Positions 1,429 to 5,280 of a stretch of 64,000 bases of DNA are shown piece after piece; positions within the stretch are counted from its first letter, which is position 1, and every line of letters starts with the position of its first letter. The translations under genes and the position numbers were made by a program. The notes beneath the pieces were generated by a model, which saw only the letters and a list, made by a program, of their open reading frames with translations, was not told the origin of the DNA and did not search any database. Location: the sequence record KR014248; one strand, given 5' to 3'. Source of the DNA: Escherichia phage vB_EcoM_AYO145A.

Positions 1429-2844
1429 ATGAGCGAATTATTTAAACATGCGCACCTTCATGCAGGTCGAACTGAAAATGGTGCTGTAAACCATACTTCA
1501 TCAATGTCTGCTCTTGTAGACTTTTACAAAGCTGCTGGTTCTAGCCGTAGCAATGTAGGAATCTTACCAGACCTGTTCTACAAAGCTTTGCGTGAGGATG
1601 TTGATGTTGCAGTTCGTATTTTGCTTCATATGCGAGATGTACGAGAAGGTATGGGTGAGCGTAAAGCTTTCCGAACTGTTTTACTTCAAGCGATTGAAGA
1701 TAAAGTTTTAGAGCCTACGCAGGTTCTTCGCATTATGGATAAGATTGCAGAGCTTGGTCGTTTTGATGACTTCAAAATCTTCGTGGGTACTCGTTTCGAG
1801 ACAGATGCCTTCAAACATTTAGAAGCAGCATTACTAGACCCTGCAACAGCAGGTTTGGCAGCTAAGTGGTTACCACGAGTCAAACCACGTCATAAGCAGT
1901 TTGTAAAACGTTTCTGCAAGTTTGCAAACTTGAGTGAGAAAGAGTACCGCACACTGTTGTCTGCACTATCTGATACAGTTGAACAAAAAATCTCTGCTAA
2001 TGAGTTTGGTAAGATTGACTACAGTAAGATTCCTTCACTTGCTGCTGCACGTTACCAAAAACTCTTTAACCGTAAAGATGGAGAACGCTACAAAGCTTAC
2101 ATCGAGTCACTCTCAAAAGGTGAGGCCAAGATTAACGCTGGTGCTGTTTACCCATACGATGTGATTAAATCTATCAAGTATGGTAATGCAGATGTTGCTA
2201 ATGAGCAGTGGAAAGCACTACCAAACTGGATGGTAGAAGGTGAAAACATCCTGTGTATGACTGATGTTTCAAGCTCAATGTCTTGGGTGAATCTTGGTTC
2301 AATCACTGCCCTTGATATTGGTGTATCCCTTGCCTTGTATGTAGCAGAACGCAATACAGGTTGTTTTAAGAATGAGTTAATGGTTTATTCAACAAACCCT
2401 CATTTCATCGAATTGAGTGGTGATTTACGAAACCGTCATCGTCAGATAATGCGTCATGTTGAATATGGCTCAACTAACTTACAAGCAGCTTTTGACCGTA
2501 TTCTTGAAATAGGCAAGAGAAACAACTTGACTCAGAAAGATATGCCAAGTAAGCTTATTATCTTCTCTGATATGGAGTTCAATCAGGTTGATGGAGCTAA
2601 CGGTCGTACAAACTTTGAAGCAATTCAGAGTAAGTACAAAAAAGCTGGATATGAGATGCCACAACTGGTATTCTGGTACTTAGCAAACCGTAATGGTACT
2701 TGCGAAGTATCTGTTAAGGATAATGGTGTAGCAATGGTATCAGGGTTCTCTCCAGCCACTTTAAAAGCTCTGCTTGGTGGTGAGAAGTTTGACCCAATCA
2801 GCGTAATGCTCAAAGCAGTAATGATTGACCGTTATATCTGGTAA
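1429..2844 (+). CDS. Ro60-like protein: TROVE/DUF2828-like N-terminal region plus C-terminal vWA domain with MIDAS motif
   Basis: 471 aa. MIDAS DxSxS is present (CMTDVSSSM). The blocks DVSSSM, GSTN, IIFSDME, KYKKAGYEMPQLVFW and MVSGFSP occur in the same order as the Ro60 vWA blocks DVSASM, GGTD, IVFTDNE, YRKKMDIPAKLIV and DMCGFD. The N-terminal TENGAV...LVDFY resembles the DUF2828 signature. Confidence 0.65.
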   Translation: MSELFKHAHLHAGRTENGAVNHTSSMSALVDFYKAAGSSRSNVGILPDLFYKALREDVDVAVRILLHMRDVREGMGERKAFRTVLLQAIEDKVLEPTQVLRIMDKIAELGRFDDFKIFVGTRFETDAFKHLEAALLDPATAGLAAKWLPRVKPRHKQFVKRFCKFANLSEKEYRTLLSALSDTVEQKISANEFGKIDYSKIPSLAAARYQKLFNRKDGERYKAYIESLSKGEAKINAGAVYPYDVIKSIKYGNADVANEQWKALPNWMVEGENILCMTDVSSSMSWVNLGSITALDIGVSLALYVAERNTGCFKNELMVYSTNPHFIELSGDLRNRHRQIMRHVEYGSTNLQAAFDRILEIGKRNNLTQKDMPSKLIIFSDMEFNQVDGANGRTNFEAIQSKYKKAGYEMPQLVFWYLANRNGTCEVSVKDNGVAMVSGFSPATLKALLGGEKFDPISVMLKAVMIDRYIW

Positions 2845-2862: not shown

Positions 2863-2891
2863 TTGACAATGTGTTTGATACCCTTTAATAT
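2863..2891 (+). promoter_or_regulatory. sigma70-like promoter, first of two ahead of the tRNA array
   Basis: TTGACA at 2863-2868, a 17-nt spacer, TAATAT at 2886-2891. Preceded by TTTTAAAAAGGG. Confidence 0.65.
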
Positions 2892-2953: not shown

Positions 2954-2983
2954 TTGACAACCACTAAAAAATAATGTTAAAGT
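2954..2983 (+). promoter_or_regulatory. sigma70-like promoter, second ahead of the tRNA array
   Basis: TTGACA at 2954-2959, an 18-nt spacer, TAAAGT at 2978-2983. tRNA-Pro starts at 3010. Confidence 0.6.
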
Positions 2984-3171: not shown

Positions 3172-3178
3172 GTTTTGA

Positions 3179-3251
3179 CAGAAGACCAATTACAGCAAAC
3201 TTAATCTTATTCATCTGACACGAAATCGGACAAAGAAGAGATTTGGTCTGG
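3179..3251 (+). ncRNA. Y-RNA-like small RNA YL1 (conserved-clamp family, no tRNA module)
   Basis: 5' CAGAAGACC (3179-3187) and 3' GGTCTGG (3245-3251). Helix AGACCAA/TTGGTCT, with the conserved 5' extension TTACAGCAAA. Lies between tRNA-Glu and tRNA(CAT), 7-11 nt from each. Confidence 0.55.
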
Positions 3252-3262
3252 TCATTAAGAAT

Positions 3263-3339: not shown

Positions 3340-3345
3340 ATTTTG

Positions 3346-3405
3346 CAGAAGACCGTATGCAGCAATAAACTACTTTTTGCGGATAAAAGAAAAAACACGG
3401 TCTGG
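3346..3405 (+). ncRNA. Y-RNA-like small RNA YL2
   Basis: 5' CAGAAGACC (3346-3354) and 3' GGTCTGG (3399-3405). Helix AGACCGT/ACGGTCT covaries relative to YL1. Motif TGCAGCAA. Lies between tRNA(CAT) and tRNA-Asn. Confidence 0.55.
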
Positions 3406-3416
3406 CAATGTATTAA

Positions 3417-3756: not shown

Positions 3757-3761
3757 AGGAG

Positions 3762-3838
3762 CAGAAGACCAAATTCAGCAAGTACGTATGATATTTTCAA
3801 GCCAATTTAATTTTGAAAAAATTTAAAACTTGGTCTGG
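3762..3838 (+). ncRNA. Y-RNA-like small RNA YL3
   Basis: 5' CAGAAGACC (3762-3770) and 3' GGTCTGG (3832-3838). Helix AGACCAA/TTGGTCT, motif TTCAGCAA, internal hairpin TTTTCAA/TTGAAAA. Confidence 0.55.
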
Positions 3839-3851
3839 CTCAACAAATTTA

Positions 3852-3983
3852 CAGAAGACCGTTTACAGCAAAACTTAAACAATCTATTTCTCCGGTAAAG
3901 AAAAGGCGAAGGTTCGATTCCTTCACTCGGCAGATGTCGAGTTGGTGTAATGGTAGCACTTAAGATGATAAACAACGGTCTGG
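3852..3983 (+). ncRNA. Y-RNA-like small RNA YL4 with a circularly permuted tRNA-like module (YrlA-like architecture)
   Basis: Clamp CAGAAGACC (3852-3860) and GGTCTGG (3977-3983). Helix AGACCGTT/AACGGTCT, then CTTAA (3874-78)/TTAAG (3960-64). T-arm GAAGG-TTCGATT-CCTTC (3908-24). Acceptor 3' strand ACTCGGC (3925-31), 4-nt AGAT link, acceptor 5' strand GTCGAGT (3936-42). D-arm GTGT-AATGGTA-GCAC (3945-59). Confidence 0.65.
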
Positions 3984-3984
3984 T

Positions 3985-4128
3985 AATTATCTTTGTAGAT
4001 AAGTTATTAAGCTTACCTGTGAGTATGCGACCACAAAGGGTGAAAGGGTAAATTCTAGATTTAAACCCAACAAGGCACATCGCTACAGACCTTAAGCAAG
4101 TCTGGGTAGCTTATCTACAAAGATAATT
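3985..4128 (+). ncRNA. structured element closed by a 19-bp perfect stem
   Basis: AATTATCTTTGTAGATAAG (3985-4003) pairs perfectly with CTTATCTACAAAGATAATT (4110-4128). The interior contains hairpin GCTACAGAC-CTTAAGCAA-GTCTGGGTAGC, which echoes the YL clamp. Confidence 0.45.
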
Positions 4129-4133
4129 TTAAT

Positions 4134-4209
4134 GGAAGTGTAGCAGAATGGTGATGCGGCAGACTTTTAATCTGACAGGCGATGGGTTCGAATCCCTCCA
4201 CTTCTACCA
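4134..4209 (+). tRNA. tRNA-Lys (TTT)
   Basis: Acceptor GGAAGTG/CACTTCT, anticodon loop CTTTTAA, T-loop TTCGAAT with an irregular T-stem (GATGGG/CCCTCC). CCA is encoded. Confidence 0.8.
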
Positions 4210-4382: not shown

Positions 4383-4411
4383 TTGACATTGAGATGTGAC
4401 TACTTTATAGT
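4383..4411 (+). promoter_or_regulatory. consensus-like internal promoter within the tRNA array
   Basis: TTGACA at 4383-4388, a 17-nt spacer, TATAGT at 4406-4411. Confidence 0.7.
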
Positions 4412-4577
4412 AACCTTAGTTTTCGTTGCGTAGCGTCTATTTTGCAAATTTAAAATAAATGCAAACGACAATGTTTTTCTGGCAGTAGCTTGATAGGCTA
4501 AACACCAGTGAGGTCTTCCAATCCCTCATCAAAGAATTTGGCGTACTCGCCCACGGTATGATTAATAAGGTGGGCAT

Positions 4578-4608
4578 CTTTAAGGGCTTTCTAAGAGAGT
4601 CTTTAAAG
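4578..4608 (+). repeat. conserved-loop hairpin H2
   Basis: Stem CTTTAAGGG/TCTTTAAAG (with G-T wobbles), loop CTTTCTAAGAGAG. Ends 7 nt before the atypical tRNA(TCT). Confidence 0.55.
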
Positions 4609-4615
4609 ATAATTA

Positions 4616-4697
4616 CGGGGCGTATCTCAGCGGTCTTCTAAACCGCCGTTAACCGAGTAAGTGGAGTATGCGGGTTCGAGTCCTGCCGCCTCGACCA
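4616..4697 (+). tRNA. atypical tRNA-like gene, anticodon TCT (Arg), no recognisable D-arm
   Basis: Acceptor CGGGGCG/CGCCTCG, perfect anticodon stem-loop GCGGT-CTTCTAA-ACCGC, T-arm GCGGGTTCGAGTCCTGC. CCA is encoded. Only 7 nt lie between the acceptor and anticodon stems, and the variable region is 23 nt. Confidence 0.5.
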
Positions 4698-4839: not shown

Positions 4840-4922
4840 GTGGGACGATGTTAAGACTCTAAGGCATGAGCAACGGCTTCCAACACCGTTTCAAAGGGGT
4901 TCAACTCCTCCGTCCCATGCCA
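4840..4922 (+). tRNA. atypical tRNA-like gene, best read as tRNA-Trp (CCA)
   Basis: Acceptor GTGGGAC/GTCCCAT, discriminator G, CCA, T-loop TTCAACT. The anticodon region reads either ACGGC-TTCCAAC-ACCGT (CCA, C31-A39 mismatch) or AACGG plus a 9-nt loop. The D region is oversized. Trp is otherwise the only amino acid missing from the array. Confidence 0.5.
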
Positions 4923-5023: not shown

Positions 5024-5280
5024 CCTAATAAGATTTAAAGCCAAGCTTCATTCGGATGTTGCTTTGGTATACCGCGTGTATTGTTGTACGCACTGATAAA
5101 GCACCTAGTAGGTGTCACGGAGAAGAGATAATATCAAGCTCTCCAAAGGTTCTAGTCACCGGATTAAACAAGACTATGCAAAGACCTTTTTAGGTCTTTT
5201 TAGAGGGCTTCTAAGGTTATTACAGCTTGTTGTGGAACCTTGTTGCTTAGGTTCTTAGAAGTTCTCTAAAAAGACTTAAT

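Follow-up and report, generated by a model that had tools for sequence, protein, structure and literature searches.

Between a Y-RNA-like repeat (YL4) and a tRNA-Lys(UUU) gene, the DNA examined here carries 144 nt whose two ends are exact reverse complements. The question raised by this locus is whether that stretch serves the processing or stability of the neighbouring tRNAs, belongs with the adjoining YL repeats, or is an RNA gene in its own right. The whole stretch of DNA analysed, 64 kb in length and referred to below as the window, is of the Felixounavirus type, with 99.7% identity to LF82P5 and UAB_Phi87 and 256 related phage records.

The closing stem and its genomic setting

The element spans 3985-4128 on the + strand and is closed by a 19-bp perfect inverted repeat, P1, formed by AATTATCTTTGTAGATAAG and its exact reverse complement CTTATCTACAAAGATAATT (Table 1). 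Both arms of the stem described in the initial annotation were read in the sequence, and the interior, put there at about 105 nt, measured 106 nt. At the cost of one mismatch the repeat search extended the arms to 22 nt. Among inverted repeats of the window with a gap of no more than 250 nt, P1 was the longest perfect one and the only one of at least 14 bp, the runner-up reaching 13 bp. The number of repeats of at least 19 bp expected by chance was 1.3e-4 from base composition, and the longest repeats in 30 shuffles were of 10-15 bp; the stem is thus as unlikely by chance as had been claimed. The RNA fold of the + strand element yielded -47.8 kcal/mol, with z = -6.6 against dinucleotide shuffles. 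Up to five further G·U-rich pairs could be added to P1 using 4004-4008. Uninterrupted double-stranded RNA would comprise 19 perfect base pairs, or 22-24 with the extension, and 18-27 bp in relatives. A duplex of at least 19 bp (about two turns, roughly 20 bp) is of suitable size for RNase III, and cleavage by this enzyme within P1 is plausible.

ARAGORN called 25 tRNA genes in the window, every one on the + strand, and the element lies inside this tRNA operon on the same strand, ending 5 nt before tRNA-Lys(UUU). It adjoins YL4 as described, the final two bases of the YL4 outer stem (A3985, A3986) being the first two of the 19-bp arm. The next sigma-70-like promoter downstream of the two listed in Table 1 is a consensus match at 4383, and no terminator-like site was found on the + strand between the promoters at 2863 and 2954 and that position. 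The simplest reading is therefore that the element would form part of a polycistronic tRNA precursor.

Several other features of these tRNA arrays were recorded. Long hairpins at 4576-4610 and 5190-5279 (+) end 2-6 nt ahead of a tRNA gene. Two tRNA-like sequences drew no ARAGORN call, at 4616-4694 and 4841-4922 (+); the former, with a UCU anticodon loop, reached 31.7 bits against the Rfam tRNA model, and relatives annotate a tRNA-Arg of different sequence at its place. HNH homing endonuclease genes sit between tRNA genes in some relatives (L001:554-982; H12 (HMD-P8)), making the spacing of the array variable. Leader/trailer repeats flank tRNA-Asn of the Pectobacterium phages Arno162 and Wc4 (L037:2224-2322 and L045:1043-1145) and tRNA-Ser of Yersinia phage P778 (L038:3714-3827). 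One such pair, AAAUUAUCUUUGG/CCAAAGAUAAUUU, corresponds to the outer portion of P1 in the window, and with it the acceptor stem would reach about 20 bp. In the Kolesnikvirus-like contig L160, a 183-nt spacer with a closing stem of roughly 22 bp, unrelated in sequence to the element, precedes tRNA-Met (L160:5925-6100).

Table 1. Position and basis of the features of the element and its surroundings in the window.
Feature	Position	Strand	Basis or remark
Sigma-70-like promoter, second	2863-2891	+	Consensus match only
Sigma-70-like promoter, nearest upstream	2954-2983	+	Consensus match only
YL1-4 repeats	3172-3262, 3340-3416, 3758-3846, 3847-3986	+	
YL4, upstream neighbour	3847-3986	+	Y-RNA-like repeat with tRNA-like domain; partial tRNA match 3875-3925
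P1 5' strand, closing helix	3985-4003	+	19 bp perfect; covaries with 3' strand across lineages
Pseudoknot 5' strand, GCUUA	4011-4015	+	Pairs with UAAGC in P4 loop
P2 hairpin, CCUGUG / CACAAAGG	4016-4039	+	AA bulge; least certain helix
P3 hairpin, apex AUUCUAGAUU	4046-4068	+	Palindrome UCUAGA at 4054-4059
P4 hairpin, CUAC-AGAC / GUCU-GG-GUAG	4083-4109	+	9-nt loop CUUAAGCAA at 4091-4099
P1 3' strand, closing helix	4110-4128	+	Repeat search, covariation
Linker UUAAU, element to tRNA	4129-4133	+	5 nt; 2-5 nt in all lineages
tRNA-Lys(UUU), downstream neighbour	4134-4209	+	ARAGORN; same neighbour in L001-L005, L037, L038, L045

Homologues, covariation and the interior fold

A BLAST search with the 144 nt returned 188 records, all at least 93.8% identical. 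In more distant phages, 140-170 nt still lie between the upstream RNA and tRNA-Lys, and homologues were found there in Suspvirus and Mooglevirus (the L type, 145-146 nt), in Arno162 (171 nt) and Wc4 (169 nt), and in P778 (162 nt). BLAST of the Arno162 element gave four records and of the P778 element one. In all lineages the homologous elements end 2-5 nt ahead of tRNA-Lys(UUU).

The covariation evidence comes from few independent lineages, five in number. Because MAFFT aligned the full set of lineages in a structurally inconsistent way, a script was used to tabulate the core pairs. Between Felixounavirus and the L type, P1 differs by three double compensatory pairs (U-A to C-G twice, G-C to C-G once), one base pair deleted on both strands, one A-U to G·U change and one broken pair. 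In this comparison 98.4% of P1 cells were paired, against 26-47% in slid-partner controls. The mismatch of the L type, C·U, is restored to A-U in a metagenome variant (L199). The P1 arms of Arno162 (27 nt) and P778 (21 nt) have unrelated sequences. A short box, UUUGNAG/CUNCAAA, read directly from the sequences, recurs in the P1 5' strand, which argues that the helix is not wholly free to vary. The comparison for compensatory changes that had been proposed with the initial annotation thus found pairing kept in every related lineage identified, and the changes that keep it indicate that the stem is a selected structure.

The variant L199:7970-8165 (metagenome contig OIXH01002422.1) is an L-type element within a Felixounavirus-like contig whose DUF5681 is 98% identical; besides the repaired P1 mismatch it carries a compensatory change in P4. 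This mosaic suggests that the RNA has been exchanged between genera.

Among Felixounavirus variants, five of six one-sided helix substitutions give G·U on the + strand and the sixth a mismatch. The same five changes would be C·A on the - strand, so the pattern fits a + strand RNA. Over 20 Felixounavirus loci, variable sites amounted to 9.7% of the element, compared with 1-13% for most tRNAs, 16-34% for YL1-3 and 11-29% for spacers, and P4, its loop and the P3 apex had none. By this measure the element is conserved to the tRNA level within Felixounavirus. A natural deletion (L015:6460-6540) joins the T arm of YL4 to that of tRNA-Lys(UUU), taking half of YL4, the whole element and about half or more of tRNA-Lys. 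As this natural isolate is presumably viable, the element would be dispensable at least under some conditions.

Within the closing helix, the hairpin GCTACAGAC-CTTAAGCAA-GTCTGGGTAGC reported earlier was found at 4082-4110 and corresponds to P4, the 3' strand of which continues directly into that of P1. The stem and this hairpin stood, whereas the interior proved to be more than that reading had allowed, with conserved hairpins and a pseudoknot that it had overlooked. The P4 stem covaries over five lineages, its forms being CUACAGAC/GUCUGGGUAG, CUACAAACC/GGUUUGCGUAG, CACCGUC/GAUGGGGUG and AAAGUC/GACUUU. The 9-nt loop is kept as CUUAAGCAA, CUUUAGCAA or CCUUAGCAA (consensus CYUWAGCAA). In six of six lineage representatives the longest complement to this loop, of 5-7 bp, lies just after the P1 5' strand. 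In the window the 3' strand of the resulting pseudoknot occupies 4093-4097, inside the P4 loop. The paired strands, 5' strand given before loop strand, are GCUUA and UAAGC in Felixounavirus, GCUAAA and UUUAGC in Suspvirus, UUGCUUA and UAAGCAA in Arno162/Wc4, and GCUAA and UUAGC in P778. Loop position 4 covaries, being A:U in Felixounavirus and Arno162/Wc4 and U:A in Suspvirus/Mooglevirus and P778. Since Felixounavirus and the L type are closest relatives, at least two independent double changes must have occurred at this position. The two states of the covarying pair indicate that the P4 loop would form a pseudoknot with the segment after the P1 5' arm. The terminal pseudoknot pair is lost in two Felixounavirus variants (L020, L021). 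When the P4 hairpin, a matching pseudoknot strand and an enclosing stem were joined in one descriptor, it matched only family members in 2.2 Mb of retrieved loci.

In P3, three pairs show compensatory changes within Suspvirus/Mooglevirus and two A-to-G changes in L020 retain G·U, while Felixounavirus and the L type share an unvarying apex, AUUCUAGAUU. In P2, a weakly supported helix, a single C-to-U change in L016 keeps a U·G pair. The apex of the second hairpin carries a palindromic hexamer, UCUAGA in Felixounavirus/Suspvirus/Mooglevirus and AACGUU in Arno162/Wc4/P778, so that all six positions have changed with self-complementarity retained, in a single evolutionary switch. The fold of lowest free energy (-47.8 kcal/mol) is not that of the comparative model, which reaches -33.6 kcal/mol without the pseudoknot, and the outer stem of P4 competes with the G·U-rich extension of P1. 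Taken together, the comparisons show a conserved + strand RNA fold in which a long terminal helix is capped by an H-type pseudoknot and carries a variable insertion, always beside tRNA-Lys.

The element matched no family in Rfam 15 (including twister, HDV-like, hammerhead, GOLLD, ROOL and tmRNA) at E values up to 10, and an Rfam scan of the Arno162 homologue at a permissive threshold likewise found nothing. A tRNA was discounted, with neither an ARAGORN call nor an RF00005 match at 3985-4128 or for the Arno162 homologue. A covariance model (R1) built from the Felixounavirus and L-type elements found no paralogue in the 64-kb window beyond weak noise. R1 matched the Arno162/Wc4 homologues weakly and missed that of P778, and found nothing in T4, in Klebsiella, Aeromonas, Cronobacter or Vibrio Ro60 loci, or in L160-type phages. 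No homologue was present in 5,426 E. coli genomes. A scan of IMG/VR with GTGTAACGTTCACT returned 86 matches, all apparently due to chance, and scans of IMG/VR and metagenomes anchored on DUF5681 added the variant L199 but no other lineage. The literature searched contained neither an account of this RNA nor expression or end-mapping data for Felix O1-like phages.

The Ro60-like protein and the YL repeats

Upstream of the element, and immediately ahead of the tRNA operon, a gene at 1429-2844 (+) encodes a 471-aa protein with the Pfam domains DUF2828, DUF7788 and VWA. Its family occurs in 708 phage records, and mycobacteriophage members, 34% identical over the full length, are annotated 'Ro-like RNA binding protein'; there was no direct sequence match to solved Ro60 structures. 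The homologue in Bas63, gp130, is reported to have structural likeness to Ro60 and to counter the Ppl defence system, and the authors of that work guessed that Y RNAs were hidden among the tRNAs (PMC11482910).

Y RNAs have a long stem formed by their paired 5' and 3' ends (PMC4201824). The YL repeats consist of an outer stem, an AGA/G bulge and an inner stem AGACCnn/nnGGUCU followed by CAGCAA, and their stems covary between the four copies around CAGAAGACC...CAGCAA...GGUCUGG. YL4 has in addition a tRNA-like domain in permuted order, in which GGTTCGATTCC is the T arm and CTCGGCA-GA-TGTCGAG the closed acceptor. Rfam gave no Y RNA match for the YL repeats. They match the published description (PMC4201824), and the Ro60-like protein probably has its Y RNAs in YL1-4.

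The repeats and the Ro60-like gene occur together in Felixounavirus, Suspvirus, Mooglevirus and P778, the last of which carries the element as well. In Arno162, where tblastn of the whole genome revealed no Ro60-like gene (best E = 0.08) and the tRNA region is free of YL repeats, the element is nonetheless kept. Neither YL repeats nor a Ro60-like gene were found in the tRNA regions examined of Wc4 and of L160. It follows that the YL repeats go with the Ro60-like gene, whereas the element is independent of both, and its function would not depend on the phage Ro60-like protein.

The CAGAC...GTCTGG arms of the inner hairpin had been likened to a shortened YL clamp. The likeness is real in Felixounavirus and L199, where P4 has the inner stem of the clamp, AGAC(C)/(G)GUCU, along with its bulged G on the 3' side, its C-G closing pair and the AGCAA that follows, but it is not kept in the other lineages. 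There the same hairpin has the unrelated stems CAAACC/GGTTTG, CCGTC/GATGG and AAAGTC/GACTTT, while the YL clamps remain YL-like. The pentamer AGCAA is the sole sequence common to the element and YL, and its presence in the element is accounted for by the pseudoknot. The Ro-binding motif (GNCGAAN0-1G / CGAA; locally RCAGAAGACC ... GGUCUGG clamp) is absent from P1. A resemblance of P4 to the anticodon arm of tRNA-Lys was set aside, being confined to the lineage of the window.

Nature of the element and comparison with known systems

The reading that best accounts for these observations, to which a probability of about 60% is given, is that of a new small structured noncoding RNA gene of about 144 nt (145-171 nt in relatives), the terminal helix of which would serve excision or stability. 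Transcription would proceed on the + strand as part of the polycistronic phage tRNA operon. General tRNA biology predicts that RNase P would set the 3' end at the 5' end of tRNA-Lys, cutting at 4133/4134 and leaving a 5-nt tail. The 5' end would come from maturation of YL4, possibly with an RNase III cut within P1. As a terminal helix, P1 would tie the ends together and isolate the fold from neighbouring tRNAs, and it may either block 3' exonucleases or act as an rRNA-style processing stalk. The core, as the comparison shows, is P1 capped by the compact H-type pseudoknot, with the variable P2/P3 domain inserted in one pseudoknot loop, and through this rod-plus-pseudoknot core the mature RNA may, at a guess, bind a protein or another RNA. 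Of the two roles proposed in the initial annotation, that of a processing or stability element is made plausible by a structured RNA located 2-5 nt before tRNA-Lys; membership of the YL family was not borne out.

A purely cis-acting stalk would need less of the element: a duplex for RNase III cutting or for insulation of folding, splitting YL4 from the tRNA-Lys-Met-Ile block, with an idle interior. The duplex is kept at 18-27 bp, well beyond the needs of stability, other long hairpins adjoin tRNA genes (4576-4610 and 5190-5279), and a different stem-closed spacer stands ahead of tRNA-Met in L160. Single tRNAs in Arno162/Wc4 and P778 bear leader/trailer repeats of 13 bp that are perfect or nearly so, and one of them is the outer P1 sequence AAUUAUCUUUG. 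The persistent length, the other tRNA-adjoining hairpins and these repeats do fit a processing-stalk role for P1. The interior, however, is conserved to the tRNA level within Felixounavirus, and between genera the P4 loop, pseudoknot and P3 apex either stay the same or covary, all of which would be needless for a mere stalk. This conservation argues for an additional role of the excised RNA in its own right, and a stalk with an idle interior is considered possible but unlikely. Somewhat more doubtful is a bolder version of the RNA gene, a new compact class of phage RNA (long duplex plus H-type pseudoknot) that would form kissing-loop homodimers via the palindromic apex and act as a decoy or scaffold. 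Such dimers are possible because the inner hexamer pairs cannot form inside a single hairpin, and kissing loops occur in other RNAs of phage tRNA islands (PMC12286853). If the idea is true, the RNA might serve in the infected cell as a decoy or scaffold that mimics dsRNA or the shape of a tRNA, perhaps against host nucleases or defence systems attacking tRNA-Lys.

The remaining explanations carry much less weight. The proposal of a fifth YL or Y-RNA-like partner, bound by the Ro60-like protein via the P4 stem-bulge-stem and AGCAA, could draw on the Ro60-like gene 1.1 kb upstream on the same strand, on the long 5'/3' stem of Y RNAs (PMC4201824) and on the parallel between P4 and the YL clamp in Felixounavirus and L199. 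It is improbable given that Arno162 keeps the element with neither YL repeats nor a Ro60-like gene (no tblastn match better than E = 0.08), that the YL-like P4 stem is absent from other lineages, and that the element has no tRNA-like domain and, near its 5' end, neither a GNCGAA/CGAA-type motif nor the YL motif RCAGAAGACC. A decayed tRNA-derived pseudogene held by linkage would cast P1 as an extended acceptor stem, P4 as a former T arm and the pseudoknot as a former contact of T-loop and D-loop. The topology agrees, as P4 runs into the P1 3' strand like a T arm into an acceptor stem, while the partner of its loop lies a short way past the 5' strand, matching T-loop/D-loop geometry; the Arno162 pseudoknot strand GCUUAUAUGG is, moreover, identical to the D arm of tRNA-Phe in the window. 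A current function is nevertheless favoured by the compensatory changes and by strong purifying selection, no ARAGORN or Rfam tRNA match was found even at E = 10, and the pseudogene is at least as improbable as the YL partner. A DNA-level element, be it a miniature transposon with 19-bp TIRs, a recombination site or the 85-aa - strand ORF at 3823-4080, is exceedingly improbable. Terminal inverted repeats are indeed present and the ORF exists, annotated 'hypothetical protein' in some records, but the ORF is not conserved in Mooglevirus, and a MITE or transposon was rejected on its single copy per genome (R1 finds no second in the window beyond weak noise) and its fixed locus while the arm sequences change between genera. 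Neither target duplication nor empty sites were seen, the sole loss being the T-arm recombination, and the G·U pattern and pseudoknot are RNA features.

The element helps to sort the RNAs of this locus, YL1-4 being likely Ro60 partners and the element not. It lies near the gene of a Ro60-like protein reported to counter Ppl (PMC11482910). Compared with Y RNAs (YrlA/YrlB, Yrl1/2; PMC4201824, PMC12135203), the element is likewise a small RNA of about 100-150 nt with its ends paired in a long stem and a stem-bulge-stem, within about 1 kb of a Ro60-like gene on the same strand. It differs in lacking both the GNCGAA/CGAA motif and tRNA-like T/D arms, in its pseudoknot and in its presence in a phage without Ro60; the description of Y RNAs is fitted by the neighbouring YL1-4, not by the element. 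The ROOL and GOLLD RNAs of phages and prophages are structured, often lie beside tRNA islands and are rich in pseudoknots and kissing loops (PMC12286853). The element shares with them its position beside a tRNA island in a phage, its structured nature and its pseudoknot. Unlike the element, which has no Rfam match, they assemble into nanocages, and at about 580 to over 800 nt they are 4-6 times its size. T4 rnaC (species 1) and rnaD (species 2), annotated as stable RNAs of 119-139 nt in a phage tRNA cluster that mature from the same precursor, share its setting. They have no similarity to it in sequence or structure, R1 finds nothing in the T4 locus, and rnaC has a canonical T arm where the element has none. 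RNase III stalks, such as the leader/trailer helices of rRNA operons and the hairpins of the metY-nusA leader, are long flanking duplexes in polycistronic precursors. The element is likewise a long duplex around an RNA, but it encloses an RNA of no more than about 105 nt, and its stem may remain part of the mature molecule instead. The element represents an RNA family not described before, although its general kind, the small structured RNAs of phage tRNA clusters, is known. Phage tRNA islands hold non-tRNA RNAs from T4 rnaC/rnaD to ROOL and GOLLD, and the element, small, sharply defined and present in tractable E. coli/Salmonella phages (Felix O1, BASEL Bas63), offers a convenient model for such RNAs.
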